The notes beneath the pieces were generated by a model. That model worked only from the letters and a program-made list of their open reading frames with translations. It had not been told where the DNA came from and ran no database searches. Below, piece by piece: positions 4,389-51,212 of a stretch of 64,000 nt of DNA (its first letter is position 1; each line of letters begins with the position of its first letter). Origin of the DNA: Candidatus Bathyarchaeota archaeon (GTDB lineage Archaea; Thermoproteota; Bathyarchaeia; Bathyarchaeales; Bathycorpusculaceae). A program made the translations under genes and the position numbers. The stretch covers positions 1,888,001-1,952,000 of the forward strand of contig CAVZJV010000014.1 of assembly GCA_963775685.1 (NCBI GenBank), read 5' to 3'.

Positions 4389-5363
4389 TTAGAAAGTTGA
4401 TATGAACTCTCTTTGAAGCGGCCAAACAGTAAATAACCTATTTACTCCAACTTCCATTTTCATTAATCCCGGCAAACTTGCAATCTGTTCTTGGGTATCT
4501 ATAAACTGATTGATGTCTTTTATCATAAAACTGAATGTATAATCAAAGTTGCCGCTTGATTTAGTTATGAAATTTATGTCCTGTATTTTGGACAGAATTT
4601 CGGTGTTACGTTCCAATGTTTCATGAGAAAATGATACATAAAAAATTGCATACGCATAATATCCAATCTTAGTTGGATTTATCTGAATTACAACTTTGAG
4701 GTCTCTATTTTCCTTTAGTCTCTCATACCTTCTAACAACAGTGTCGGTTGAAACACCCAACGGCTTAGCAATCTTTTCAAAAGATATGTGGCCGTCTATT
4801 GCTAGTTTCTCTATAATCTTTGTGTCAATGTTGTCAATCTTTGTTTCGACCTTTTTTTCAGGTAAGATTTCCTTTCTGAAGACCGTTTTGGATTCTTGTT
4901 CTTGGGTGTTAAGAATTGACAGGTTCTCTGGCGTGGTTCTTGTACCTATCCACACCCTCACATCAGTTGCGAGGATAAAAGGCAACCGCTGGATTGAGTG
5001 TTTAGCCTCTTCTAGTTCTTCAATGCTCTTCAAAATTGCCACCGCAGCAACCGTTTGATTTACAACTCGGGAGTAGACGTGAAAAACGTGCGGTATTCTC
5101 TTAACAGACGTAATAGCGCAGTCTAATTTACCGCGCTGAAAATTAATGAGAATAGTTGCAACGAATTTGCCCAGATAACAAGTGTAACTGTTTTGAATTG
5201 TTGCTCCAACGATTATGCCTTTTTTCTCCATTTGTTTATAACGTTTGGAAATAACATCTTTTGTTGTGTTGCATTTTGGCGCGATTTCTGCAAAGGTCTT
5301 TCGTCCATCTATTAGAAGTTCCTTTAGGATTTTTTTGTCGATTTCGTCAATTACGGGCTTCAT
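4389..5363 (-). CDS. Tandem (double HTH + RAM) Lrp/AsnC-family transcription regulator
   Basis: Two Lrp HTH units (IDEIDKKILKELLIDGRKTFAEIA and IDNIDTKIIEKLAIDGHISFEKIA), each followed by an AsnC ligand domain. C-terminus is WPLQREFISTF. Confidence 0.9.
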   Translation of the reverse strand: MKPVIDEIDKKILKELLIDGRKTFAEIAPKCNTTKDVISKRYKQMEKKGIIVGATIQNSYTCYLGKFVATILINFQRGKLDCAITSVKRIPHVFHVYSRVVNQTVAAVAILKSIEELEEAKHSIQRLPFILATDVRVWIGTRTTPENLSILNTQEQESKTVFRKEILPEKKVETKIDNIDTKIIEKLAIDGHISFEKIAKPLGVSTDTVVRRYERLKENRDLKVVIQINPTKIGYYAYAIFYVSFSHETLERNTEILSKIQDINFITKSSGNFDYTFSFMIKDINQFIDTQEQIASLPGLMKMEVGVNRLFTVWPLQREFISTF

Positions 5364-5575
5364 GACTGCTCTTATCGTTTTTACCTGCTTAATTAATTTA
5401 TTCTATTGACATCCTAAATAAATGGGCAAAAGATGCAAAATCCACATTAGTGGAAATAAATCTGTTTTATTTTCTACTTTTAAGGGTTTTGTCGTTGAAA
5501 ATGCTGAAAATAGGAAAAGCCTAAATAACTTGGCCGTTATCCTTTTTTTTTACAAAACATATAGGAAGGAAAAAC

Positions 5576-8416
5576 TTGAAAAACTTTAGTAAAACAGCAG
5601 CAATAGCAATTGCGATATTATTGACAATTTCAATAGGAACTTCAATGATTCTAATACCTCAAGCGAACGCCCACAACCCGGGCTACCAGATTCCAACGTT
5701 TGCTTACATTGCCGTTCATCCTGACCCAATCGGTGTTGGCCAGACAGTTAACGTTTTCATGTGGCTCAACCAAATCTTCGGAGTAGGCTTGGGTGACTCA
5801 AGCAGCTATGCACTACTATCCAACAACTACAGATTCCACAACTACAATTTCACTGTCGTTGCTCCAGACGGCACTGTTAAAACGACAATTTTCGAAACTG
5901 TTTCAGACACTACATCAAACCAAATAACAAGTTTCACACCCGACCAAACTGGTACATACACGTTAATATTTAGTTTCCCAGGACAAACATACACAGCAAG
6001 CAACGGTAATCCCAACAGTGCAATTGTCAACGACACATATCTGCCAAGCAGCGCAACAACAACACTTACTGTTCAATCAGAAGCAGTACCTGCCGCTATA
6101 GGTAGCTCACCATTGCCAACCGCTTACTGGACACGTCCAATCTACGGCGAAAACACTGACTGGTGGACTATATCCTCAAACTGGCTAGGCGCAGGCTCAG
6201 CGGTTAACCCCGCAGTAGGTTCAGGCGTGGTCTCTGCTTTCTCTACAGGTCCCCCACAAAACTCGTGGGGAGCAATCATGAGTCGAAATCCAGGTGACGC
6301 TATAGGATCCCTGTCTAGCCACGTAATTTGGACTAAGCCGATTCAAAGTGGTGGAGTCGTCGGAGGCAACATGTACTATGATGGTGGTGGATATCCAGGA
6401 ACAGGTCAAGGTGTTGGCTACTACGAAGGCACTGCATACGAGCAACGATACATTAACCCGATAATCATGGACGGTATACTCTACTACATGGCACCATTAG
6501 GATTCGATGCTCCAAGCTATGGACCATTGACCGCCCTTAATCTGCAAACTGGAGAAGTTGTTTGGACCAGCAATACATTGCCAGCGCCATCATTCGGATA
6601 CATATACAACCTCTGGGACCCTGACGAACACGGAACCTTCCCACCAATACTTATTTGCCCACTCGGATCTACATGGGAAATGGTCGATGGATTCACTGGA
6701 ACCGTACTGTTTAACGTGACTGGTGTTCCATCAGGCTACGTGGCAGCAGGCCCATCAGGCGAACAACTAAGATACGTCTTACAGAACAAAGGTACAACCG
6801 CAAACCCGAACTGGTACTTGGCAGAATGGAATTCATCAAGAATTTGGCAATACGACATTAACCCATTCACAGGTGCAGGAAGTGTTTCACCAGCAATCAT
6901 CAATGCAAGCACCGCATCATCATTAGTTACAATATTTCCAGCTTCCAACCAAGCAGCCGCTCAAAATACGCTCATTGTCCAAGCAAACGTAGGATTTGAC
7001 ACCATTGTACCAGGTACACTTTTGGACTCAACAAGGTATCCCTCAGAATGCACTTATGACTGGAACGTTTCAATACCCGAACTGAACAACCCAGGCGGAT
7101 CATCACCTTCAGTAATTGCAGGAATGTACAACAACGTTTTGATGACCTTGAACGGAACTCTACCAGCATCGCCAAGCAGCTTTAACGGAGCAGGCAGCTA
7201 TACACCTTACACCTACATGGCATTCGACCTAACCAACGGCCATGAAGGGGCATTTAAATGGATAAACACACTGCAACCAGTACCAGGCAACGTCACCGTT
7301 TACTACGCCGGAGTCGACCCGACAACTAACGTCTTCATAGAAGAAAACTATGAAACCTTGAATTGGGTTGGATACAGCCTGTTAACAGGACAAAAGATAT
7401 GGGGTCCAACTCCAGCTATGGAGTCGCTTGACTACTATGGTCAAACAGCGCCAAACGAATTCTGCGGTCAACTCGCCTTTGGTAACCTATACACAAGCGC
7501 ATTCGGCGGCACAGTATACTGCTACGATGATTCAACTGGAGAGCTAAAATGGACATATGGTAACGGTGGCGCAGGCAACAGCACTTTGGCAGGATTTAAC
7601 ACACCCTACGGCGATTATCCGACATTCATCCAAGCAGTTGGCAGCAATGGGGTGATTTACCTGGTTACAACAGAGCACACTGTAATCGACCCAATCTACA
7701 AAGGCGCAAAAGCACGAGCAATCAATGCCACAACAGGTGCAGAAATCTGGACAATTTCAGATTACACCAGCGAATTCACTCAAATGAGTTACATTATCGC
7801 AGATGGATATACAACGTTTTTCAACGGGTATGATGGACAAATCTACACTTTAGGCAGAGGACCAAGTCAAACGTCCGTTACAGCACCAAACGCAGGCTTA
7901 GACTCAGGACAGAGCGTAGTAATTCGCGGCATGGTCACAGATATTTCCACTGGCACAAAGCAGACTCAACAAGCAGCTGACTTCCCCAACGGCATTCCAG
8001 TTGCAGCAGACGCGATCATGGGTGACTGGATGGGCTATATCTACCAGCAGCAACCATTGCCAAGCAACTTCACAGGCGTTCAAGTAACAATTAACGTCAT
8101 CGACTCAAACGGCAACCAACGCACCATCGGCACAGCAACAACTGACAGCCAAGGAGTCTACACTCTAAGCTGGGCACCAGACATTCCAGGCGACTACAAA
8201 GTCATCGCAAACTTCGCAGGCACCAACAGCTACTGGCCATCAAGCGCTGAAACCTCATTCAACGTGATGGAAGCACACCCAACAGTCGCACCAACCACCC
8301 CACCACCACAATCAGCAGCTGACCTATACTTCGTTCCCGCAGTCGCAGGCTTATTCGTCCTGGTCATCATAGTATTAGCATTGCTAGTAGTTATGATGAT
8401 GAGAAAACGAGCATAG
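5576..8416 (+). CDS. Secreted, C-terminally anchored PQQ-like beta-propeller surface protein (paralog A)
   Basis: Signal peptide, PDPIGVGQ N-domain, repeated TGE..W propeller motifs, Ig-like C-domain (W.PDIPG.Y.V.A.F.G), P/T linker, TM helix and basic tail RKRA. Confidence 0.85.
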   Translation: MKNFSKTAAIAIAILLTISIGTSMILIPQANAHNPGYQIPTFAYIAVHPDPIGVGQTVNVFMWLNQIFGVGLGDSSSYALLSNNYRFHNYNFTVVAPDGTVKTTIFETVSDTTSNQITSFTPDQTGTYTLIFSFPGQTYTASNGNPNSAIVNDTYLPSSATTTLTVQSEAVPAAIGSSPLPTAYWTRPIYGENTDWWTISSNWLGAGSAVNPAVGSGVVSAFSTGPPQNSWGAIMSRNPGDAIGSLSSHVIWTKPIQSGGVVGGNMYYDGGGYPGTGQGVGYYEGTAYEQRYINPIIMDGILYYMAPLGFDAPSYGPLTALNLQTGEVVWTSNTLPAPSFGYIYNLWDPDEHGTFPPILICPLGSTWEMVDGFTGTVLFNVTGVPSGYVAAGPSGEQLRYVLQNKGTTANPNWYLAEWNSSRIWQYDINPFTGAGSVSPAIINASTASSLVTIFPASNQAAAQNTLIVQANVGFDTIVPGTLLDSTRYPSECTYDWNVSIPELNNPGGSSPSVIAGMYNNVLMTLNGTLPASPSSFNGAGSYTPYTYMAFDLTNGHEGAFKWINTLQPVPGNVTVYYAGVDPTTNVFIEENYETLNWVGYSLLTGQKIWGPTPAMESLDYYGQTAPNEFCGQLAFGNLYTSAFGGTVYCYDDSTGELKWTYGNGGAGNSTLAGFNTPYGDYPTFIQAVGSNGVIYLVTTEHTVIDPIYKGAKARAINATTGAEIWTISDYTSEFTQMSYIIADGYTTFFNGYDGQIYTLGRGPSQTSVTAPNAGLDSGQSVVIRGMVTDISTGTKQTQQAADFPNGIPVAADAIMGDWMGYIYQQQPLPSNFTGVQVTINVIDSNGNQRTIGTATTDSQGVYTLSWAPDIPGDYKVIANFAGTNSYWPSSAETSFNVMEAHPTVAPTTPPPQSAADLYFVPAVAGLFVLVIIVLALLVVMMMRKRA

Positions 8417-8435
8417 GAAAAGTCCATGAAAACAA

Positions 8436-8454
8436 TTTCCCTTTCCCTTTTTTT
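8436..8454 (+). terminator. Archaeal pyrimidine/oligo-T terminator of paralog A
   Basis: TTTCCCTTTCCCTTTTTTT 20 nt after the stop. Equivalent tracts follow the other three paralogs (14021-14034, 48242-48263, 51234-51251). Confidence 0.6.
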
Positions 8455-8490
8455 AGTCTTAAAATCTTAAAATAATTTGGATAACTTGTG

Positions 8491-8606
8491 GGGGCTGAAT
8501 AGGCTCTGACTGTGTTTCACGATGCTTAGCCATAGTTTTCGTGATGGAGCGTTTTTGCATTTCGCTCTTTCTCCTTAAGCTTGGTCTAGAGCCTCAGCAA
8601 ACCCTT
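8491..8606. ncRNA. Candidate structured small RNA, copy 1 (loops complementary to the 5' ends of paralogs C and D)
   Basis: Near-duplicate of 14072-14185. Outer stem GCTGA/TCAGC plus GGCTCT/AGAGCC plus GAC/GTC. Inner hairpins TCACGA/TCGTGA and GAGCG/CGCTC. No reading frame is conserved between copies. Confidence 0.65.
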
Positions 8607-9064
8607 ATGTATATCACTTAGAGCCAACCATATTAACCAATGCATATAGAAATGTAATCAACACTGCTTGAATTAGTGATTATCCATGAAATCATAATCT
8701 TAAATCCGAAATCTGCTAATACGACACCCAAAATATGCAAAGAGGTTTAAGAAGAAAAATGATAAACGTTGGAGAAACATATCTTATTGGTTTTTTCAAT
8801 TTATCTGAAATCTTTAGTGACACTATTTGAAGCAGTTGACGGACCAAGCTTAATCAACTCAAGATATCTCTGAACTGACTTATTCATAAAAACACCTATA
8901 GTGTGCCAGAAAGACTTCTGGAATAGCAAGATAGATGCGTACCGGCGTCATAATGCCATTATTGAATATAGCTTTCAAAGACTAAAATGTTTAGTCGGCA
9001 CCTTATAAAGAATTCAAGACTCATTAAAAATTTCTTAATTGTGTTTTTTCAGTAAAACGGTTTG

Positions 9065-10051
9065 TTAGAATGTTGATATGTGCTGTTGTAGCGTTGGCCA
9101 CTTGTCGGGGATTTTTCTTGCGCTTGCTTCTATTTTTGTTATGCCGCAAACCTCGGAAATTTGATCTTGAATGTCAAACGACTGTGCCATGTCTCTTACT
9201 ATTGCTGTTAATTGAAGATCAAAATCGCCACTGGTCTTTGTGATGATAACTACATCAGGTATTTCCGCTAATGTCTCAACTAATGTATCTGTTAACCCCT
9301 CAGAAGTTGTAAAAGCTACGTTAATGTCCAATATCGAGGTATACCCAATTAAGTTTGGATTTATCTGTATGGAGACTTTTATCGCGCCATTCTCCTTGAG
9401 TTTATAATACCTTTTTAAAATTGTATCTGTTGAAGTGCCCAACTCTTTAGCGATTTTTGTAAATGAAATGCGTCCATTTATGGCTAATATGCTTGCAATG
9501 TGTCTGTCTAAAGCATCAATTTCAACAGGAAAAGAGCTTTTGTTGATTGATTGTTTTGAATTTTTCAAGCTTTCTTTTTCTCTGTCTTTTAGGCTTCTTG
9601 TAAAATCCAAGTTCTCAGGCCTATTTCTTACGCCTGCCCAGATGTATGTTTTTAAACCCGTTGTTGGCAGTTTGCGCTTAATCAACTGTTTTATGTAGTC
9701 TAATTCATTTAGATCTTTTAGGATTGCAACTGCTCTCACGTTATAAACGCTATTGTATTGCCGGTATGCACGTACCTCAGTCAGGTTTTCTGAAAATTTA
9801 CCTAGGTTGTTTTCTAACTGCTGTGCTTCTACGCTAATAAGGAAAGTTGCAAGCGCCGCGTTGCCAAATTGTCTGAAATCTATTTGTGTCGTAGCTCCTT
9901 TAATTATGCCTTTTTTTTCCATCGCTTTGCATCGTTTCCAAACTTTGTTTTTTGGTTCTCCGCATTCGTTTGCAATAGTGCCGTAGCCAGCTCGTCCATC
10001 TTGTAATAACCTTTTTAGAATTCTTGAATCTAGTTCACTTATTTTGGCCAC
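9065..10051 (-). CDS. Tandem Lrp/AsnC-family regulator
   Basis: Two HTH+RAM units (ISELDSRILKRLLQDGR and IDALDRHIASILAINGR). C-terminus is WPTLQQHISTF. Confidence 0.9.
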   Translation of the reverse strand: MAKISELDSRILKRLLQDGRAGYGTIANECGEPKNKVWKRCKAMEKKGIIKGATTQIDFRQFGNAALATFLISVEAQQLENNLGKFSENLTEVRAYRQYNSVYNVRAVAILKDLNELDYIKQLIKRKLPTTGLKTYIWAGVRNRPENLDFTRSLKDREKESLKNSKQSINKSSFPVEIDALDRHIASILAINGRISFTKIAKELGTSTDTILKRYYKLKENGAIKVSIQINPNLIGYTSILDINVAFTTSEGLTDTLVETLAEIPDVVIITKTSGDFDLQLTAIVRDMAQSFDIQDQISEVCGITKIEASARKIPDKWPTLQQHISTF

Positions 10052-10181
10052 GTGCTTTTCCCTTTTGTTATCTTATTTTTTGGTTATTTGCACTTGAATT
10101 TCTTGTTTTTTCTAGTTTTAGGCGATACTGCTGGTAAACATTTTATTTGATGATATCTTAATGATTGATCCTTAGTTAGTG

Positions 10182-11171
10182 CTAGAAAGTTGATATGTAC
10201 TGGCGAGGACTTGGCCACTTCATCCACATTTCGCCTATTCTTGAGATTTCTGATTCAATTTTATTTATCCCTGGGATCTTTCCAATCTCCTCTTGAACAT
10301 AAAGCAGTTGATCGATATTTTGGACAATTGCGTATACTTCAAGGTCATAATCTCCGGATGTTTTCATAATGCTTATGATATTAGGTAGCATGCAGAGTTT
10401 ATCAATAATTAAGTGGGATGTTTCTCCTAAAGTTGAAATGAAAAAGATGCAAATTGCTTGGTATCCGATTCTTTTGAGATTAATCTGAATCGTGACTTTT
10501 AATACGCCGTTTTTCTTCAGTCTTTCATACCTTCTTTTTGAGGTAGCAACAGAAATTCCAATTTCCTTGCTTAACCTTTCCATTGATATTCGACCGTTTT
10601 CAGCGAGTTTATTGGCTATTTTTTTGTCGATTTCGTCGGTAGTACCAGTTTGGGTTTTGACTTCTTTCTCCATCGTCGCTGCATGACTGTCTTCCGAAAC
10701 TTCTTTGAAGTTGAGCGGAATAATGGCAAGGTTTTCATTCATTTCTTTTACATCTGTCCAAATTGCAGTTTTCATTTCCAAAATAGAAAAAGACCGCTTA
10801 ATCAAGTCCTTGACCTCGTTGAGTTGCTCAAGTGCTTTGAGGATTACAACTACGTCTATGTTTCCTTTTACTTCCCTATTGTAAACCGAATAAACTTCTG
10901 GCGTTTGTTGTAGTTGTTTGACGAGTTTGTCTGCTTGTCGGGGGTCTACGTTTATTAAGATGTGTGCAACTGCTTTGTAACCAAAACTTTTGTAGTTGAC
11001 GTGAATTGTAGCGCCTGTTATGATGCCTCTTTCTTCCATTTGAAGATAGTTTTTTTTAACATTCTCTTTGGTTAGATTTAATTTTTTTCCAATTTCGTTT
11101 TCGGTTTTACGTCCATCTGCTATTAACTCTTTGAGGATTTTTGCTTGAATTTCAGTAACTATCTTGGTTAA
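10182..11171 (-). CDS. Tandem Lrp/AsnC-family regulator; the homologous start position is TTA (non-canonical or mutated)
   Basis: The track ORF starts at 11039, but the frame stays open upstream and encodes the first HTH (LTKIVTEIQAKILKELIADGRKTENEIG). C-terminus is WPSPRQYISTF. Confidence 0.8.
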   Translation of the reverse strand, partial: LTKIVTEIQAKILKELIADGRKTENEIGKKLNLTKENVKKNYLQMEERGIITGATIHVNYKSFGYKAVAHILINVDPRQADKLVKQLQQTPEVYSVYNREVKGNIDVVVILKALEQLNEVKDLIKRSFSILEMKTAIWTDVKEMNENLAIIPLNFKEVSEDSHAATMEKEVKTQTGTTDEIDKKIANKLAENGRISMERLSKEIGISVATSKRRYERLKKNGVLKVTIQINLKRIGYQAICIFFISTLGETSHLIIDKLCMLPNIISIMKTSGDYDLEVYAIVQNIDQLLYVQEEIGKIPGINKIESEISRIGEMWMKWPSPRQYISTF

Positions 11172-11393
11172 GATTAATACCCCTTGTTAAGAATTCATGG
11201 TCTTTTTCTATTATATTAATTAATCGAGTGTTTTATCTTTTATTTTGGGAATGATTCAAATCTGAGAAAATTGTCAGATGTTATTGCCTTTTCTTTGTAA
11301 ATAAAGAAATTTCATCGAACAAAAATGTAGTCTTTAAAAACTTTTAAATATGAAGAAGGCGCTTGGTCTCGCTCACAAATCGGAGAAAAGAAA

Positions 11394-13994
11394 ATGAACT
11401 CTAGAAAAACAATTTCGCTAATCTTAGTATTAGCTTTTGCAGCAACATTAGTTATATCAATACCTACACTAACAGTCAACGCACAGACGACACCTACGCA
11501 GAAAACTTTCCCAGTCATAGATGCTATTCCTAATCCAATTGGGGTCGGACAAGTAACACTGCTAAAAACCGGAATCTTACAGCAAATTGCTGGTTCTCTA
11601 AACGGTTGGACTGGCATAACAATAACTGTAACTAAACCGGACGGCACAACCCAAACACTTGGACCTTTCAAAACTGACTCAACAGGATCAACTTTTACAC
11701 AGTATACACCCGATGAAGTAGGGACGTACATTTTAACTACGAACTTCCCGGAGCAAATCAACCCTGAAACCTACTATAACAATGAAGGAGGCAACTATAT
11801 TCTCGCAGGCACTATCATGCAAGCAAGCACTGCAACAACCAACCTCACTGTACAGCAAGAACCATTACCCTTCTATCCAGGACATGCTCTTCCAACAGAA
11901 TACTGGAACCGACCAATCGACCCACAGCTTAGAGAATGGTACTCTATCTCAGGCAACTGGGTAGCTAGACCAGACAATTCAGTAGCACTCTATAACGACG
12001 ACGCACCAGAAACAGCTCACGCACTATGGGCGCTCCCAATAACCACTGGAGGCTTAATGGGTGGTCTATGGGGTGACGGGCAAGTTCCATCAAGCGCTGA
12101 AGCAGGCGACGCATATGAAGGCAAATTCCCTAACTCAGTCATACTCAACGGAATACTCTACTACCAAAGAACAGATACCCGAAGAGAAACGGCACCAGCG
12201 ATTATCGCAGTTGACCTTCACACAGGCGAACAATGGATGTTCAGAAACACCACTACATTATCATTCGCTCAAATCTTGTATTTTAACAGCTACAACTACG
12301 ACGGCACTTTCTCATACATCTGGGATACAACAGGTCGAGTAGCTGACGACCCAAGCACACCAAGCGTAAACGAAGGATACACCTATTGGTCTGCGTACGA
12401 TCCATTCACTGGCAATGAGCAAATGAGGATCTCCAACCTTCCATCAGGAACACGCTTCTTTGGACCTAGTGGCGAATTTCTCATACTACAAATCGATTAC
12501 AACAATGGTTGGATGGCTCTCTGGAATGAAACAGATTGCGGACTTCAGAATGCAGTCATCGGCACACCCGACTATGGCAGCTGGGGCAACACAGCTCACG
12601 GAACCGCATTGTCAAATCCAGCTCGTTATCCAGGCTTAAATGCAACAAACCCACGATGCTACACATGGAACGTCACAATCCCCAAAGGCTTAGGAACTAC
12701 TAGCGGAATCGGCGGACCAGCACTAAAAATCTACGTTGAAGACAGAATAGTTGGCATGATGTTCAACCAAACAAACGTTAACATATGGTCACTTGACATT
12801 TCACCTGGACATGAAGGTGCAGTCATATACAACAAGAGCTGGTCACCACCAGCAGAATGGGCAGAAGGCTCAATCACATTAGCCTATACACAAGCAACCA
12901 ATTATGTTAAAGACAGCACATACGGAAACGGTGTGATTGGATTATGGGCAAAAGAAATACGAACACACTACGGCTTTAGCGTCCAAACTGGAGACTTCCT
13001 CTGGAACACTGACTCTGAAATCTACCTAGACGCTTACGGTTGGGGCAATGCAGAACATACATGGTACTTCGCAGATGGCAAACTCTACTCAGTTGGAGTC
13101 GGAGGCATACTATACGCCTACGACCTTGCAACTGGCAAAATCGCTTGGACATACGTAATGTCGGATCCATACAAAGAACCAGTAACCGGTGAAAACTGGT
13201 GGGGCTGGATAGATCTAATAGCTGACGGAAAAATCTACATCGGCACACTCGAACACTCTGCTGAACAGCCAGTACCACGCGGTGGACCTTATGTTTGCGT
13301 TAACGCAACAGATGGCAGTGAAATCTGGCGAGTCAACGGCATGTACCGTCAAACCCGTTGGGGTGGAAACGGAGTCATTGGTGACAGCATCATAGCAACT
13401 ATGGACACATACGACCAGCAAGTATGGGCAATCGGCAAAGGACCAAGCAAAATCACAGTTGATGCACCAAACATAGGTGTTCCAGCATGCAACAGTATAG
13501 TTATACGCGGTACAGTCACTGACATATCCCCGGGCACAGAGCAATACGCAAAAGAAGCACGCTTCCCCAATGGTGTACCAGCAGTATCAGACGAAAGCAT
13601 GAGCGCTTGGATGCTGTACGTTTACAAGCAATTCGAGCGGCCAATGAACGCAACCGGTGTACCAGTAGCTTTAGATGTAATCGATGCAAACGGTAACATC
13701 CGCAATATCGGCACGACTACAACCGACGCAAACGGCTTCTACAGCCTTCAATGGACCCCTGATATACCCGGCAAATACACATTGTTCGCAACATTCTCTG
13801 GCTCTAACGCTTATTATGGTTCATCTGCAGAAACATCATTTGCAGTCGAACAAGCCGCAGAACCAACCGCCGCACCAACAACAACACCTGCATCAACAAC
13901 TGAGCAATACTTCCTTCCCTCAGTAGCAGCCATCATTGTTGTCATAATCATAGTTGGCGCAATGACAATATTGCTACAGAGAAAAAGACCATAA
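11394..13994 (+). CDS. Secreted, C-terminally anchored PQQ-like beta-propeller surface protein (paralog B)
   Basis: Same architecture as 5576-8416: PNPIGVGQ, YW.RPI, propeller repeats, FPNGVPAVSDES, TM helix, RKRP tail. Confidence 0.85.
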   Translation: MNSRKTISLILVLAFAATLVISIPTLTVNAQTTPTQKTFPVIDAIPNPIGVGQVTLLKTGILQQIAGSLNGWTGITITVTKPDGTTQTLGPFKTDSTGSTFTQYTPDEVGTYILTTNFPEQINPETYYNNEGGNYILAGTIMQASTATTNLTVQQEPLPFYPGHALPTEYWNRPIDPQLREWYSISGNWVARPDNSVALYNDDAPETAHALWALPITTGGLMGGLWGDGQVPSSAEAGDAYEGKFPNSVILNGILYYQRTDTRRETAPAIIAVDLHTGEQWMFRNTTTLSFAQILYFNSYNYDGTFSYIWDTTGRVADDPSTPSVNEGYTYWSAYDPFTGNEQMRISNLPSGTRFFGPSGEFLILQIDYNNGWMALWNETDCGLQNAVIGTPDYGSWGNTAHGTALSNPARYPGLNATNPRCYTWNVTIPKGLGTTSGIGGPALKIYVEDRIVGMMFNQTNVNIWSLDISPGHEGAVIYNKSWSPPAEWAEGSITLAYTQATNYVKDSTYGNGVIGLWAKEIRTHYGFSVQTGDFLWNTDSEIYLDAYGWGNAEHTWYFADGKLYSVGVGGILYAYDLATGKIAWTYVMSDPYKEPVTGENWWGWIDLIADGKIYIGTLEHSAEQPVPRGGPYVCVNATDGSEIWRVNGMYRQTRWGGNGVIGDSIIATMDTYDQQVWAIGKGPSKITVDAPNIGVPACNSIVIRGTVTDISPGTEQYAKEARFPNGVPAVSDESMSAWMLYVYKQFERPMNATGVPVALDVIDANGNIRNIGTTTTDANGFYSLQWTPDIPGKYTLFATFSGSNAYYGSSAETSFAVEQAAEPTAAPTTTPASTTEQYFLPSVAAIIVVIIIVGAMTILLQRKRP

Positions 13995-14071
13995 ACACAG
14001 CAGAAAACAACCATCAACAATCTTTCCTTTTTTTAGTCTTTAAATATTAAAAAAAATTTGGTGAACAGATA

Positions 14072-14185
14072 GGGGCTTAGTTGGCTCTGGGTGTGTTTCG
14101 CAATGTTAGCCATAGTTTTCGTATGGAGCGTTTTTGCATTTCGCTCTTTCTCCTTAAGTTTGGTCCAGTGCCTCAGCAAACCCTT
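14072..14185. ncRNA. Candidate structured small RNA, copy 2
   Basis: Homolog of 8491-8606 at the same position after the paralog B terminator. The three loop blocks are identical and the stems vary. Confidence 0.65.
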
Positions 14186-14285
14186 CCTTATGCAAACCAA
14201 AATAGATGTATTAACTTTTTGTAAAGTGAACCTTTCAATACAGTTGAGCTTTTTTCAGACTAAACTGACAGAATTTACAATAGTT

Positions 14286-14409
14286 TGGCGCCGGGGAAGG
14301 GATTCGAACCCCTGCGAGCACGAAGCCCACCAGCTATCTTGCCTTTTCAGGCTCAGCCCTCTTTTGTATAATCTCGAGGCTGGCGCGATAACCACTCCGC
14401 CACCCCGGC
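14286..14409 (-). tRNA. tRNA-Ser(CGA) with a 37-nt intron at 37/38 (14336-14372) and encoded CCA
   Basis: Reverse complement reads GCCGGGG...CCAGC CT CGA G[intron]A GCTGG, then a long variable arm, AGGGG TTCGAAT CCCTT, and CCCCGGC GCCA. Confidence 0.9.
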
Positions 14410-14908
14410 TCCAGCCTAAACATTTGCAGTTGTGGCTAAAAGAGTTTTCACTTGAGACAAAATAATTTAGTTCAGTTTTTTGACCCCTTCTAAAGAAAGA
14501 CTGAAGACATGATTAATCTCCACTATAACCTAGATCCGAACCACCCAAACCTACACATCTAAATGAAACATAGACTTAATGATGAGACAAAGCATTTTGC
14601 ACGACAGTGTTATCTTTCAGAAGTAAATACAACTTATACTTGCGAGTTTAACCCATATCCCTGAAATACCAAAACAGAAACTAAGTTGTTCAAAACCAAG
14701 TAACTTATTCAAACAAAAAACAAAGCAATATTTAGGCGCAGAAATCTCTATCGATTTCAAACTATAGGTAACCATTAAAATACTCTAACAACTCAAGAAA
14801 TAAGAGTTGTGAAATTTCTTTTTCAGAGTTTGCGCTCACTTTTGCGTTTTTAATGGCAACGTTTATAACCCCTTTTACTATTTGCTAAAGGCGCGAAGCT
14901 GAAGTACT

Positions 14909-45516: not shown

Positions 45517-45541
45517 TTAAGATACCATTCATGTTAGAGAT

Positions 45542-45599
45542 ATTGGGCAAGGATAAGAAACACTCGACAATTCGATTAGTGTTTACTCTTTTGCTCAAT
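45542..45599 (+). promoter_or_regulatory. 5'-UTR hairpin of paralog C
   Basis: ATTGGGCAA/TTGCTCAAT and AAACACT/AGTGTTT pairings; begins at the predicted TSS. Confidence 0.6.
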
Positions 45600-45625
45600 T
45601 AGAATAAATTAAGAGGAAAAGAAAA

Positions 45626-48220
45626 ATGCAAAAACTAAAAAATAAAACTATGGCTATTTTGATCGCAGCAATTTTAACAATATCAATGGCAACTTCGATA
45701 ATGCTCGTGCCAAATGCTAGCGCTCATACACCTGCGTGGGAGATTCCGACGTATATGTTTGTTAGCGTCGCACCAAACCCAATTGGTGTCGGACAGACAG
45801 TCAACGTTAACCTCTGGTGTAACGCACCCCCACCAACGGCAAGTGCACAATATGGTGACAGATGGACAAACTTAACTCTAGTTATCACTAAACCTGATGG
45901 AAGTACACAAAAATTAGGGCCATTCTCATCTGATGCAACTGGAGGAACGGTCACAACCTTTACTCCTGACACAGTCGGCAATTACAGTTTACAAAGCTTC
46001 TTTGGAGGCGAAGTGCTACCAGGTCTAAACAATCCCGTACCAGGAACTATTTCAAACAATGCATTCGTTAACGACACCTTCCTACCTAGCTCCAGCAGCA
46101 AATTTGTTCTAACAGTGCAGCAAGACCCAATATCGTACGAGCCAGCAGCACCACTACCAACCAGCTATTGGACTCGCCCAATTTACGGCGAGAACAACGC
46201 TTGGTACACAATCGCAGGCAACTGGCTTGGCCTATCCGCGTCAACCTTTGCAGCAACTGGAATGTACAGCGTAATGTCAAACTATAACCCGTACACAACC
46301 GCTCCTAACTCTGCCCACATACTTTGGACAAAACCAGTAGCGTTCGGCGGTATAATTGGAGGCGAATTCGGTGGAAGTGAAACAGGCAACTACTACTCTA
46401 CATCTCAATATGAACCAAAGTTTGCTCCAATCATTATGCAAGGCATCCTATACTACTCACTCTATCCCGGATCCTCAACCTATCCGCAAGGATGGACCGC
46501 TGTAGATCTGCATACTGGGGAAACACTTTGGACCAAGAACATAAACACTGAAGTGCTAAAATGCGGACAAATTCTCCAAATGATTACACCTAACCAATAC
46601 GGTGCCCTCGCATACCTCTGGACCATCCCAGTAGCAGCAGCAGGCTACCAAGCAGCAGGACAATACATGTCAATGTATGACGCAATGACTGGCAACTATA
46701 TACTAACTATCAAAAACACACCTTCAATGTCACTTACTGAAGACGAACGCGGAAACTTGATAGGCTACTATGTCAACAGCAGCCAGGGACAACGGTCACT
46801 TTCTGTTTGGAACTCTACAAGATGCATTAACCTAGTTGGAGCCAACTATGGCGGCGGTGCATCAGTTGCAGATCAATGGATGTGGAGACCCCCATACAAC
46901 ACAACAATCGACTTCCAATTGGGAGTACAAGACTCATGGCCCATAGTAACCTCAATTGACAATACACCTATCTCTCTGGGGCTTTCTTCTATTACTGACG
47001 GAGTGGCACTCATGACGCAAGCAAGCGTTGCAGGGAGTTCATTCTTCCAGAACGGATGGATTATTCAAGCAGGTTACGACCTTAGCACAGGGGACAAACT
47101 CTGGGGACCAGTAAACCGCACAGAAGTCATAGATTCAAGAGTGCTATACGGATCAACGACAGCTGGTAACGGCGTTTGGGTAGAATTTGACGCAGCCGCA
47201 CTGACAGCAACTGGATATAGTCTCCACACAGGCGAAAAAGTCTGGGGTCCAAAAGCACTTCCAAATGTTAGCCCCTTCGCTTCACTAGGTGAACAATACG
47301 TTGTCGCTGACAAAACAATCTACCTCTGGACCTATGGCGGAGACATATACGCTATTGACTTGGCAACAGGAACCTTCAATTGGGAATATCACACACCTCC
47401 AGGCGGTTACGAATCACCTTACGGTATAGAGCCTCTTTGGACTTTCACTGTAGGGACAGTCGCTGACGGAAAACTATTCGTGCCTGAAGGCCACATGTAC
47501 AGCCCACCATTATTCCACAACGCACAACAGCTAGCAATAAACACTACCAACGGTCAAGTCGTATGGAGTATTGATGCTTTTGATGTTACCAGCGCACCCG
47601 CGATTTCTGACGGGATTATGACAACCCTAAACGCCTACGACAACCAGATCTACACTTGGGGTAAAGGTCCAACCGCTATGACTGTTACTGCACCTGACGT
47701 TGGCGTAACAACTGCCACTCCAATAACAATCAGGGGTGCAGTTATCGACAAGTCAGCTGGAACCCAGCAACAAGCTCAAGTAGCCAACTTCCCCAACGGC
47801 GTCCCAGCTGTATCAGATGAAAGCCAAACTGCATGGATGGAATATGTCTACATGCAACAGCCAATGCCAACAAACACAACAGGCGTCTCAATCATCATAA
47901 GCGTCATTGACTCAAATGGCAACAGCCGTCAAATTGGCAGCACCACAAGCGATGCAAGCGGCATGTTCTCTCTCACATGGACACCCGACATAACAGGACC
48001 CTACACCGTAATAGCCAGCTTCCCTGGCTCAGAATCATACTACTCCTCTTCTGCAGAAACATCCTTCTACGCAAGCGAGCCAGCACCAACAGCATCTCCA
48101 TACCCACAGGTATCTTTTCCACCTACTGAAATGTACATTGCTGCAGCGGCAGTCGGAATAATAATTGCAGTAGCCATAGTCGGCGCTGTACTATTATTGG
48201 CAATCAAGAAACGGCCATAA
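45626..48220 (+). CDS. Secreted, C-terminally anchored PQQ-like beta-propeller surface protein (paralog C)
   Basis: MQKLKNKTMA signal peptide, PNPIGVGQ, propeller repeats, FPNGVPAVSDES, TM helix and KKRP tail. Confidence 0.85.
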   Translation: MQKLKNKTMAILIAAILTISMATSIMLVPNASAHTPAWEIPTYMFVSVAPNPIGVGQTVNVNLWCNAPPPTASAQYGDRWTNLTLVITKPDGSTQKLGPFSSDATGGTVTTFTPDTVGNYSLQSFFGGEVLPGLNNPVPGTISNNAFVNDTFLPSSSSKFVLTVQQDPISYEPAAPLPTSYWTRPIYGENNAWYTIAGNWLGLSASTFAATGMYSVMSNYNPYTTAPNSAHILWTKPVAFGGIIGGEFGGSETGNYYSTSQYEPKFAPIIMQGILYYSLYPGSSTYPQGWTAVDLHTGETLWTKNINTEVLKCGQILQMITPNQYGALAYLWTIPVAAAGYQAAGQYMSMYDAMTGNYILTIKNTPSMSLTEDERGNLIGYYVNSSQGQRSLSVWNSTRCINLVGANYGGGASVADQWMWRPPYNTTIDFQLGVQDSWPIVTSIDNTPISLGLSSITDGVALMTQASVAGSSFFQNGWIIQAGYDLSTGDKLWGPVNRTEVIDSRVLYGSTTAGNGVWVEFDAAALTATGYSLHTGEKVWGPKALPNVSPFASLGEQYVVADKTIYLWTYGGDIYAIDLATGTFNWEYHTPPGGYESPYGIEPLWTFTVGTVADGKLFVPEGHMYSPPLFHNAQQLAINTTNGQVVWSIDAFDVTSAPAISDGIMTTLNAYDNQIYTWGKGPTAMTVTAPDVGVTTATPITIRGAVIDKSAGTQQQAQVANFPNGVPAVSDESQTAWMEYVYMQQPMPTNTTGVSIIISVIDSNGNSRQIGSTTSDASGMFSLTWTPDITGPYTVIASFPGSESYYSSSAETSFYASEPAPTASPYPQVSFPPTEMYIAAAAVGIIIAVAIVGAVLLLAIKKRP

Positions 48221-48391: not shown

Positions 48392-48417
48392 CTAACTCAT
48401 TGAATAGAGCTATTTTA

Positions 48418-48481
48418 ATTGGGCAAAAGCGCATAGACATTGATTCTTTAGGACAAATGTTTAGCTTAGGCTTTGTCCAAT
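48418..48481 (+). promoter_or_regulatory. 5'-UTR hairpin of paralog D
   Basis: ATTGGGCAAA/TTTGTCCAAT and TAGACATT/AATGTTTA pairings. Confidence 0.6.
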
Positions 48482-48506
48482 GAGAAAAATTTAAGGAGAA
48501 AGAAAA

Positions 48507-51212
48507 ATGCAAAAATTAAAAAATAAAACTATGGCTATTTTGATTGCGGCAATTTTAACAGTTTTAATGGCAGATTCTCTGATACTATTGCCGGATGCTG
48601 GTGCACATACGCCATCCTGGAGCATAAACACTTACGCTTACTGTAACGTCGCGCCTAACCCCGCAGGATTGGGCCAAACTGTTACTATCGGCATGTGGAT
48701 CCAGATACCTCCACCGACGGCGGCTGGAGCAGTTGGAGACAGATGGCACAACTTTAACGTAACAATTACAAAACCTGACGGAACCAAAGAAACTCTAGGC
48801 CCATTTACATCTGACGATACAGGCGGAACATTCACTCTATACACTCCAGATCAACTAGGCAACTATAGCTTTGTGTTCAACTATCCAGGTGAGGTGATGC
48901 CTGGTGCAAACGGAGCTTCAAAGACAAACGCATACATAGGAGATTACTTTGAACCATCCACCAGCGAAACCGCATATTGTACAGTGCAGCAGGACCCAGT
49001 GCCAACACTACCGACAATTCCACTTCCGACAAGCTACTGGACTCGTCCAATACAATCTGGCAACGGTTTATGGTCAACAATATCTGGTAACTGGCTAGGC
49101 TTCGGTATACACTCGTTTGCTAACACTGGAAGGTACAACAATACCGGGAACTATAACCCGTACTCTGCAGCGCCACTGGCTCCCCACATAATCTGGACAA
49201 AGCCTGTTGCGTTCGGAGGCTTAACTGGAGGCGAATTCGGCGGCAGCGATACAAGCAACTTTTACTCAACCTCACAGTACGAGCCAAAATGGGCACCCAT
49301 CATAATGAATGGAATCATGTACTATACCAACTACCCAACAAGTATCAACAACCCAACCGGATGGACAGCACTAAACTTGAAAACAGGAGAAACAATCTGG
49401 ACAAATAACGCAGAAAACCTCGGCGGCGGCAATCCAACGCAAAGTGCTCTAACATCCACAGGAATAGTGACTATTCTCAGATGCGGTCAGCTACTCGACA
49501 TGGTAAACCCCAACCAATACGGCAACATCGCATATCTATGGAGCACCGGAACCCCTACAGGAATCAACACCCAACCAGGATCAACTACTTATAACCTGTT
49601 CGATGCAATGACCGGGACCTATATCCTTAGCATCGTTAACGGCTCCTCAATGACACTTACAGAAGACGAAGGAGGGAACCTAATTGGCTACTACATCAAC
49701 TCAAGCACCGCCAACGCATATAAAGCACCAACCCTAAACTGTTGGAACTCAACACAAGCAATCTTCTATCCAAACTCCCAGTTCATACCAGGAACAACAG
49801 TAGCAAGCTGGAGTTGGAGACCAGGACAAAGCTCCGTTATCAATTTCCAACGTGGAGTAATGTGGTCCAAACCAGTCGCCACCAACATCTCAGGCAACCC
49901 ATTGATCAGCACAACTGACCTCTCAGGTAACCCTGTGACAGCTTCTCTTTCAATTAACAGAGTCGACAGCGGAATCGTGCTCATGACCGCCGTAGGCGCT
50001 TCATACTTCAACATTGGCTACCAAATTGATGCAGGATACAGCGCAACTACAGGAGAACAGCTATGGATCGAAAATCGGACCTTGACACCCTTCACACGAG
50101 ACTCAATAACTAAAGGTGGCTACGGATTGTACTACTATATGCAATCAGCTCAAGGCATAATGAGAGCCTACGACTTGAACACAGGCAAATTGAAATGGGG
50201 ACCAATACAGCTTACAGGTGACAACGGCAACTACCCTGTGCCTGATCCATACGACAGCATCGGCGGCTATCAAACAGAAATTGCCAACGGCGTACTCTAC
50301 GTGATGGGCTTTGGAGGCGATGTATGGGCTATCAACGCCCTTACAGGTGAAGAAATCTGGTACACCAGCACCAACAAACTCATCGGTGAAGCCGGGTCTG
50401 ATACACCTTATGGTGTGTGGCCACTTTGGGTCTTCAGCGGTGGATCTGTGGCTGGAAACGGAGTTTATCTTCTTAACGTTGGCCATGAATATAGTCCACC
50501 ACTATTCCGAGGAGCAAAACAACTAGCACTAAACACCACCGACGGATCCTTGATTTGGAGCATACTGGGCTTTGACGTAACAAACGGTGCCACCATCGTT
50601 GATGGAGTTGTAACCGTGCTAAACGCATATGACAACCAACTATACTCATATTCCCAAGGTCCAACCGCTATGACTGTTACTGCACCTGACGTTGGCGCAA
50701 CAACTGCCACCCCAATAACCATCCGAGGCACTATAACAGACACCTCAGCCGGAACAAAACAAGAAGAACAAGTAGCCAACTTCCCCAATGGCGTCCCATG
50801 CGTCTCTGACGAAAGCCAAGCAGCATGGATGGAATACGTCTACATGCAACAGCCAAAACCCACAGATGTCACTGGTGTTAAAATTGCAATAAACGTAGTT
50901 GACGCAAACGGCAACAACAGACAAATCGGCACAACCACAAGCAAAGAAGACGGCACATTCTCTTTGACATGGACACCTGACATATCAGGCGATTACTATG
51001 TCATCGCTATCTTCGCAGGCTCAAACTCGTACTATCAGTCATCCGCAGGCACATCATTTTTCGCAAGTGAAACAACAACAGCAACCCCAGCACCGACACA
51101 AGCTGCAGAATCAATGGCTGACCAATACTTTGTTCCAGCAATTGCAGGCCTCTTTGTAGCCGTAATAGTCGTTGGTCTATTGATCATCTTAGTCCTTAGA
51201 AAACGACCATAA
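48507..51212 (+). CDS. Secreted, C-terminally anchored PQQ-like beta-propeller surface protein (paralog D)
   Basis: Same architecture as paralog C, with identical first 17 residues (MQKLKNKTMAILIAAIL). Confidence 0.85.
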   Translation: MQKLKNKTMAILIAAILTVLMADSLILLPDAGAHTPSWSINTYAYCNVAPNPAGLGQTVTIGMWIQIPPPTAAGAVGDRWHNFNVTITKPDGTKETLGPFTSDDTGGTFTLYTPDQLGNYSFVFNYPGEVMPGANGASKTNAYIGDYFEPSTSETAYCTVQQDPVPTLPTIPLPTSYWTRPIQSGNGLWSTISGNWLGFGIHSFANTGRYNNTGNYNPYSAAPLAPHIIWTKPVAFGGLTGGEFGGSDTSNFYSTSQYEPKWAPIIMNGIMYYTNYPTSINNPTGWTALNLKTGETIWTNNAENLGGGNPTQSALTSTGIVTILRCGQLLDMVNPNQYGNIAYLWSTGTPTGINTQPGSTTYNLFDAMTGTYILSIVNGSSMTLTEDEGGNLIGYYINSSTANAYKAPTLNCWNSTQAIFYPNSQFIPGTTVASWSWRPGQSSVINFQRGVMWSKPVATNISGNPLISTTDLSGNPVTASLSINRVDSGIVLMTAVGASYFNIGYQIDAGYSATTGEQLWIENRTLTPFTRDSITKGGYGLYYYMQSAQGIMRAYDLNTGKLKWGPIQLTGDNGNYPVPDPYDSIGGYQTEIANGVLYVMGFGGDVWAINALTGEEIWYTSTNKLIGEAGSDTPYGVWPLWVFSGGSVAGNGVYLLNVGHEYSPPLFRGAKQLALNTTDGSLIWSILGFDVTNGATIVDGVVTVLNAYDNQLYSYSQGPTAMTVTAPDVGATTATPITIRGTITDTSAGTKQEEQVANFPNGVPCVSDESQAAWMEYVYMQQPKPTDVTGVKIAINVVDANGNNRQIGTTTSKEDGTFSLTWTPDISGDYYVIAIFAGSNSYYQSSAGTSFFASETTTATPAPTQAAESMADQYFVPAIAGLFVAVIVVGLLIILVLRKRP

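Follow-up and report, generated by a model that had tools for sequence, protein, structure and literature searches.

The element at positions 8491 to 8606 of the 64,000-nucleotide stretch of Candidatus Bathyarchaeota archaeon DNA that we analysed (the window) is, as comparison of its copies within and among genomes shows, a member of a conserved, structured and multi-copy family rather than a single locus. Copies that follow surface-protein genes keep a fixed position and orientation, share a closing stem that covaries, and enclose an interior that is specifically complementary to the start regions of paralogs of these genes and changes with those start regions across genera. At a probability that we put a little short of even, the element may be an RNA module, read from the sense strand, whose pairing partners in trans are the start regions of sibling genes.

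Copy 1, at the positions given above, lies in the 3' flank of paralog A (5576 to 8416, + strand), a 946-amino-acid surface protein recognised from its ORF and the Pfam domains PQQ_2 and Big_3_5, with a signal peptide, a PQQ-like beta-propeller, an Ig-like domain and a C-terminal membrane anchor. Copy 2 (14072 to 14183, + strand) has its own T-run at 14028 to 14034 and lies in the 3' flank of paralog B (11394 to 13994, + strand; 866 amino acids). The two copies are 86% identical over 165 nt, whereas proteins A and B share only 32% identity. About 100 nt beyond copy 2, a tRNA gene on the opposite strand occupies 14289 to 14409 (- strand); its 121 nt against a model of 71 positions probably reflect an intron or a long insertion. 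The neighborhood also contains tandem double-domain Lrp/AsnC regulators at 4389 to 5363, 9065 to 10051 and 10182 to 11039 (all - strand).

Using iterated nhmmer on the whole genome that holds the window (G000), we found 31 copies of the element, 27 of them near full length. The same genome encodes 35 full-length paralogs (600 amino acids or more; membrane-anchored surface proteins with a PQQ-propeller and an Ig-like domain) and roughly two dozen fragments. The element follows 13 of these 35 paralogs, 53 to 79 nt past the stop codon and always on the same strand; two copies stand behind shorter paralog ORFs, and six behind frameshifted paralog 3' ends, which were recognised by their basic-tail stop context and T-run. 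No copy behind a paralog 3' end lies on the opposite strand from that gene, and 10 of the 31 lie elsewhere, beside no recognisable paralog 3' end. A divergent Lrp/AsnC gene was seen at three of the 35 full-length paralogs, all three with the element (3/13 vs 0/22, small numbers). Two orphan copies, C5:124153-124235 (- strand) and C8:5532-5613 (+ strand), are near-identical with identical flanks on two short contigs and adjoin no paralog, and they may represent an assembly duplicate or a recent duplication; a 3'-truncated copy at C14:1247737-1247815 (- strand) directly follows an apparent tRNA 3' end (GGTTCAAATCCC...CCA) rather than a paralog.

Within copy 1, three collinear blocks are exact reverse complements of the start region of paralog D (gene 48507 to 51212), just as the sequence-only reading of this DNA had proposed. 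Block 1 (TAGCCATAGTTTT, 8527 to 8539) matches 48525 to 48537, the second AUG region; block 2 (TTTTTGCATTT, 8552 to 8562) matches 48505 to 48515, the start AUG; and block 3 (TCTTTCTCCTTAA, 8566 to 8578) matches 48491 to 48503, the Shine-Dalgarno (SD) region. The first two are also exact to paralog C (45644 to 45656 and 45624 to 45634), and this two-block pattern occurs four times in the window vs none in 100 dinucleotide-preserving shuffles. The blocks are identical between copies 1 and 2 at all 37 positions, vs 67 of 79 positions outside them (p = 0.009).

The minimum free energy (MFE) fold of 8488 to 8609 contains a long closing stem and two inner stems, TCACGA/TCGTGA and GGAGCG/CGCTCT, which bears out the stems named earlier from the letters alone (the second as GAGCG/CGCTC); the z-scores for the + and - strands are -2.8 and -3.0, respectively. 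Hairpin 1 (TCACGA/TCGTGA; 8517 to 8544, + strand) has block 1, antisense to AAAACTATGGCTA (codons 7 to 11 of D and C), mostly in its loop. In hairpin 2 (GGAGCG/CGCTCT; 8546 to 8568, + strand), block 2 sits inside the loop and is antisense to the start codon context AAATGCAAAAA. Block 3 (8566 to 8578, + strand), a pyrimidine tract antisense to the D SD region TTAAGGAGAAAGA, is mostly unpaired, its first 3 nt lying within the second stem, and CTCTTTTCTCC is among the best-conserved interior columns of the element alignment. The arms of the closing stem are GGGGGCTGAATAGGCTCTGAC (5' arm, 8490 to 8510, + strand), assigned from pairing and covariation across 65 copies, and GTCTAGAGCCTCAGCAAACCC (3' arm, 8584 to 8604, + strand). 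The latter also resembles the reverse complement of the D leader (48459 to 48480), and a weaker fourth match to this leader had indeed been reported; read from the sequence, it is present and imperfect, at about 17 of 23 positions.

In all copies the closing stem pairs GGGCTGAG-(2-3 nt)-GGCTCTGG with CCAGAGCC-TCAGC-AAA-CCC. When 65 copies from many genomes were aligned to the covariance model (R1), 93.8% of 706 cells were paired and 7 of 11 pairs had changed on both sides; none of 500 shuffles reached the observed values, and slid controls were 13 to 53% paired. The inner helix is GACCCTAGCACAA/TTGTGCTAGGATC in genome G040 and GGGACACCAA/TTGGTGTCCC in G008, compensatory variants of one helix. 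The arms, which are also inverted repeats of about 20 bp, are the most conserved part of the element in both families that carry it and keep conserved asymmetric bulges. In several copies the stem extends outward with differing sequences, for example GAAGAAATGGGG/CCCATTTCTTC in G040, which fits a longer transcript.

The closing stem encloses first a variable region, which in copy 1 forms hairpin 1, then a U-rich loop with the anti-AUG, and finally an unpaired pyrimidine tract with the anti-SD. The stem of hairpin 1 is lost in copy 2, and in other genera the corresponding stretch lies antisense to signal-peptide codons of their own. Hairpin 2 has at least six stem sequence types around one loop; its stem reaches at least 5 bp in 43 of the 65 copies vs 46% of flank shuffles (mean stem 5.5 vs 4.6 bp) and is weak in G040. 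With such a modest excess over flank shuffles, it was not retained as a strongly covarying stem. RNAalifold on a MAFFT alignment also returned the closing stem only, the internal hairpins not being alignable by sequence. The closing stem is thus the scaffold, and the three-loop picture is specific to copy 1. The earlier view that the blocks are displayed as loops thus seems to describe copy 1, where block 2 lies in a loop and block 1 mostly does, and does not extend to the family as a whole, with hairpin 1 lost in copy 2 and hairpin 2 weak in the other family.

In order to predict targets, we scored the reverse complements of the 27 near full-length elements by local alignment against the 5' regions of all G000 ORFs of at least 200 amino acids (n = 1632), and the best 11 of the 1632 regions were all paralogs, in line with the claim of an antisense interior. 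Local-alignment scores and net co-fold energies replaced RNAduplex, which was uninformative on long 5' windows, GC-richer random coding windows pairing equally well (background mean about -56 kcal/mol). The strongest predicted target, by co-fold and local-alignment score, is the leader, SD, AUG and first 11 codons of paralog D (48459 to 48537, + strand), with net co-fold energies of -22.5 kcal/mol for copy 1 and -34.1 kcal/mol for copy 2. A third paralog of the MQK type outside the window (C14:2045909) gave -18.3 and -27.2 kcal/mol, and the AUG and first 11 codons of paralog C (45624 to 45656, + strand; gene 45626 to 48220), a predicted weaker target, gave -11.8 and -17.9 kcal/mol. Background means over 150 5' regions were -2.4 kcal/mol (copy 1) and -5.1 kcal/mol (copy 2), and none of the 150 was as low as D, C14:2045909 or C; the expectation that MQK-type paralogs would be the top hits was therefore correct. 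By eye, the paralogs have TATA-like boxes 75 to 95 nt upstream of the ATG (e.g., window 48413 to 48485 and 45535 to 45605), and their long leaders seem to form a hairpin whose arms differ by paralog (TTGGGCAA...TTGCTCAA, GTCGTGAA...TTCACGAC). Paralog D adjoins a gene at 51613 to 54003 (- strand) for a 796-amino-acid protein with a PQQ-like beta-propeller and a dolichyl-phosphate-mannose protein mannosyltransferase domain.

The complementarity does not favor the gene that carries the element. Net co-fold energies with the own gene were -0.4 kcal/mol for copy 1 with A and -5.9 kcal/mol for copy 2 with B, inside the background, so that A and B escape in silico as had been predicted for them. Of the 13 full-length G000 genes that bear an element, 10 had an own-gene score in the background range (7 to 9.5; background mean 8.1); in G040 the own-gene average was 12.8, other genes averaged 13.7, and the own gene ranked anywhere from 2 to 15. 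Cis complementarity of an element to its own SD was accordingly not borne out by the G000 scores, and in G040, where such pairing is possible, the own gene was not preferred. With own-gene scores mostly at background in G000 and not favored in G040, the complementarity is directed to the start region common to the family rather than to the carrier gene. Whether the carriers themselves lack a target is a matter of trend only: the ATGCAAAA start occurs in 1 of 13 element-bearing paralogs vs 12 of 22 others, by a criterion picked post hoc and among relatives that are not independent, and scores above the 99th background percentile were found in 4 of 13 vs 12 of 22 (Fisher p = 0.29, Mann-Whitney p = 0.07).

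Searching related genomes with model R1, a check that the sequence-only reading had proposed, located the element in 21 of 24 further genomes from the same genus and in 35 of 151 genomes of the order (6 of 63 genera), with up to 22 model hits per genome. It was confined to two families, f1 and f7, with 17 of 35 genomes in each, and was found in none of 80 genomes from ten other families. In G040, from family f7, 14 of 15 paralogs carry the element, with stem arms nearly as in G000 and a different interior: it holds the complement of GAAGGTGAAAAAATGAAAAAAC and TGCTACTATC, the SD-AUG context and signal-peptide codons of that genome's own paralogs. The interiors of G078 likewise hold the complement of ATGAGA...AGAAACAACAGCTACTGC, matching the MRVARNNTAATA start of its paralogs. 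After the stem arms were stripped, interiors matched the paralog 5' ends of their own genome best in four of five genomes (own-genome scores of 12.9 in G000, 15.3 in G078, 17.8 in G165 and 17.4 in G040), and G159 did not score best against its own. The idea that loops track target leaders across genomes thus held in four of the five and failed in G159. This co-variation is silent on strand, and could also have arisen if sequence was copied repeatedly from 5' ends. At the G040 loci L071 to L106, the T-run past the stop codon sits in the loop of a small CTCCC...GGGAG hairpin, which the G000 copies do not have.

The element is also frequently lost or decayed. A comparison meant to bring in a third lineage, with G015, G010, G023 and G008, added little: G015 resembles G000, and the other three have few or decayed elements. 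G010 and G023 each gave about 50 paralog matches and one model hit, and G008 gave two hits, some downstream regions in this group holding diverged versions that the model missed. The closest homologue of A in G184 (82% DNA identity) keeps the T-run and spacer motif and lacks the element, and in that of G012 only the 3' half of the element is left. Individual genes can do without the element. The Rfam check that had been suggested returned no matching family: a search of the window against Rfam 15 gave three tRNAs only at the gathering threshold, and a permissive search of 8400 to 8700 gave two chance-level matches (19.6 bits vs a 70-bit threshold, and 8.9 vs 80).

The region between gene and element bears on transcription. 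A run of seven T (8448 to 8454) followed by AGTCTTAAAATCTTAAAATAA (8448 to 8475, + strand) is conserved upstream of most copies; it is likely the terminator of paralog A and possibly a TATA-like box for the element. The T-run, which lies between gene and element, follows paralogs without the element too, and so does the CTTTCCCCTTTTTTTAGT motif that precedes most copies. Both families also have, between T-run and closing stem (e.g., window 8476 to 8486), a recurrent short motif similar to CATTGGAGAA, which persists in G184 without the element.

Neither folding energy, which was better on the + strand in 11 of 27 copies with a mean difference of 0.2 kcal/mol, nor the numbers of G-U vs A-C in the closing stem (28 vs 19, p = 0.24) separated the strands. 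Upstream conservation was 2.3 to 4.3 bits per 10 nt on the + side and 0.9 to 1.8 bits on the - side. Over 55 copies, TATA-like words numbered 17 in the 10-nt bin at -28 to -19 from the element GGG vs 1 to 6 elsewhere, and the same scan gave no TATA-like peak on the - side. In G040, a T-rich tract comes right behind the stem. These hints, together with the fixed orientation behind the gene, favor the + strand. A search for RNA sequencing runs matching window positions 5000 to 14500 returned none. A scan for sigma-70 promoters and bacterial terminators was set aside as not relevant to archaea. We also considered a small protein gene on the minus strand and rejected it, because ORFs from the shared ATG run from 5 to 71 codons, are not conserved, and are frameshifted in copy 2 relative to copy 1.

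Other explanations have to be weighed against a trans-acting sense-strand module. The element could be a relic or selfish repeat, an inverted paralog 5' end that joined a duplicated gene unit and spreads with it, its likeness to start regions being kept by gene conversion and not by function. Its minus strand does read like a paralog 5' end, collinear with the leaders from about -55 to around codon 12, SD and ATG included and spacers altered, and such an origin would agree with the frequent loss and decay and with the 10 of 31 copies that adjoin no paralog 3' end. Nevertheless, a passive relic would hardly leave elements 86% identical where the proteins are 32% identical, compensatory changes in a closing stem whose arms are near-identical in two families, a fixed orientation and distance, and an interior that departs from the 5' ends exactly where stems form; moreover, no conversion route from a 5' end to an inverted 3' copy is known, and we regard this account as unlikely. 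A structure in the 3'UTR that serves some other purpose, for example in termination, stability, localisation or protein binding, and whose antisense content is a leftover of its origin would account for arms that are the most conserved part, bulges included, in both families and for the T-rich tract behind the stem in G040, but it leaves unexplained why the interior tracks the SD, AUG and signal-peptide codons of each genus and why the blocks are invariant between copies 1 and 2, and its probability is low. Lower still is that of a site acting at the DNA level, be it a transposon of the MITE kind or a place of recombination or inversion through which 5' ends are reshuffled among paralogs. MITEs are short multi-copy elements with inverted-repeat ends, and the element is multi-copy, its arms look like terminal inverted repeats of about 20 bp, and genes are bracketed by inverted homology (a 5' end and its inverted 3' copy). 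However, we found neither the varied contexts, nor both orientations, nor the near-identical copies of MITEs: copies beside paralogs share the gene orientation at a fixed distance, the G000 copies are diverged (63% mean column identity) with no near-identical bursts except in a few duplicated regions, the arms have conserved asymmetric bulges, and neither the ORF list nor a scan of seven window proteins placed a transposase or recombinase beside the window copies. Plant MIR genes are antisense regulators born from inverted duplications of their targets; the element differs from them, as from MITEs, in its fixed orientation and position, diverged copies and conserved bulges, and there is no Dicer-type pathway to invoke.

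Two further accounts concern where the pairing would occur. If the 3'UTR folded back on the SD and AUG of its own mRNA, limiting translation or shaping decay in the manner of icaR, a place directly behind the gene on the same strand would be expected, and most G040 genes do have both an element and a matching start, with an own-gene mean of 12.8 that exceeds 8.1, although the latter is the G000 background and not that of G040. The background-level own-gene scores of 10 of the 13 carriers in G000, the co-fold gains of -0.4 and -5.9 kcal/mol, and the own-gene score in G040 that falls below that of other genes all speak against it and make it improbable. A minus-strand RNA that presents SD and AUG in a loop, mimicking a paralog start, and so titrates ribosomes or a regulator that binds leaders would fold equally well and be equally expected to co-vary with start regions. 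This we also hold to be improbable, given that upstream of the element on the - side there is neither conserved sequence nor a TATA-like peak, that no T-run stands behind it on that strand, that the transcript would run antisense into the paralog gene, and that the short ORFs are not conserved. Points against the trans-acting sense-strand module itself are the seven-T run, a likely terminator, between gene and element; the similar folding energies and the G-U and A-C numbers of the two strands; the loss of hairpin 1 and the modest hairpin 2, weak in G040; the frequent loss or decay in G010, G023, G184 and G012; the lack of own-genome preference in G159; and the fact that an opposite-strand mimic or repeated 5'-end copying would give the same co-variation.

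Several known systems share part of this logic. As reported (PMC3919588), s-SodF of Streptomyces coelicolor is an RNA of about 90 nt that is processed from the sodF 3'UTR and lowers the other mRNA, first noticed as a perfect match between the downstream sequence of one gene and the upstream sequence of another. The element is likewise located downstream on the same strand and is complementary beyond chance to upstream regions of other genes. It differs in that s-SodF, as described there, concerns one isoenzyme gene pair in a bacterium, whereas the element has dozens of copies in an archaeal family of 35 paralogs, a conserved scaffold stem, and complementarity over the AUG and early codons, and is known here from sequence alone. 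FopS of Bacteroides thetaiotaomicron is a multicopy sRNA family that represses SusC homologues by pairing near the start codon through one short seed, and its conserved part binds the protein RbpB; the genes (9 intergenic, 4 antisense and 1 3'UTR-derived) are mostly intergenic with their own promoters (PMC11697453). Many paralogous copies per genome directed near the start codons of a paralogous cell-surface protein family are common to both, but FopS is bacterial and is not attached to the 3' ends of its targets' paralogs. In icaR of Staphylococcus aureus, a pyrimidine anti-SD motif in the 3'UTR pairs with the SD of its own mRNA and blocks initiation (PMC3868564); the element has a similar motif, but icaR acts in cis, and the own start region of the element is not complementary in G000. 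The archaeal sRNA162 of Methanosarcina mazei masks a ribosome-binding site in trans with a single-stranded linker (PMC3510493); it is a single-copy intergenic sRNA, tied neither to a paralog family nor to a 3'UTR. The earlier reading knew of no archaeal system like this one, but the logic of the element does have precedents in the bacterial analogues s-SodF, icaR and FopS. Our literature search, with supplementary files outside its range, found analogues only and no paper on Bathyarchaeia sRNAs or describing the element.

Taken together, the covariation of the scaffold, the tracking by the interior, the paralog specificity, the absence of carrier preference and the fixed orientation fit a trans-acting sense-strand antisense module, of which transcription, strand, action in trans, repression and any exclusivity are inferred. 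The element would be a member of a family of RNA modules of about 105 to 125 nt, read on the strand of the preceding surface-protein gene and arising through 3'UTR read-through or else by initiation at a weak promoter overlapping the T-run of that gene. The conserved closing stem would serve as a constant scaffold, and the interior as a variable guide antisense to the SD, AUG and first signal-peptide codons typical of the paralogs of that genome. The module, or the mRNA carrying it, would pair in trans with the start regions of sibling paralogs, and this pairing would block initiation or trigger decay, so that expression of one family member would damp the others. The mutually exclusive expression that was put forward earlier goes further than this and is a conjecture that lacks support in its original form: 14 of 15 paralogs in G040 have both the element and a matching start region, and the partition in G000 is a trend only (p = 0.29 and p = 0.07).

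A more ambitious form of the proposal, which we consider doubtful, is a scaffold-plus-guide system in which every gene sends out, from its 3' end, a guide complementary to the start region that its siblings share, the invariant closing stem is read by a dedicated protein, and the resulting cross-repression network sets a hierarchy or one-at-a-time expression among about 35 cell-surface proteins. If true, guides would co-evolve with their targets, and archaea would have a parallel to the control of antigenic variation. To our knowledge, regulatory RNAs of uncultured archaea are almost unknown, and metatranscriptomes from peat and soil could serve to test the module directly, given the covariance model and the co-variation seen across genomes. 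If transcribed, the element would belong to a large family of RNA regulators found from sequence alone, with a built-in, testable target rule, namely full complementarity between guide and family start region. The 3' end of one paralog would thereby be linked to the 5' ends of others, which would give a concrete way into the question of how an archaeon selects among dozens of near-redundant surface proteins.
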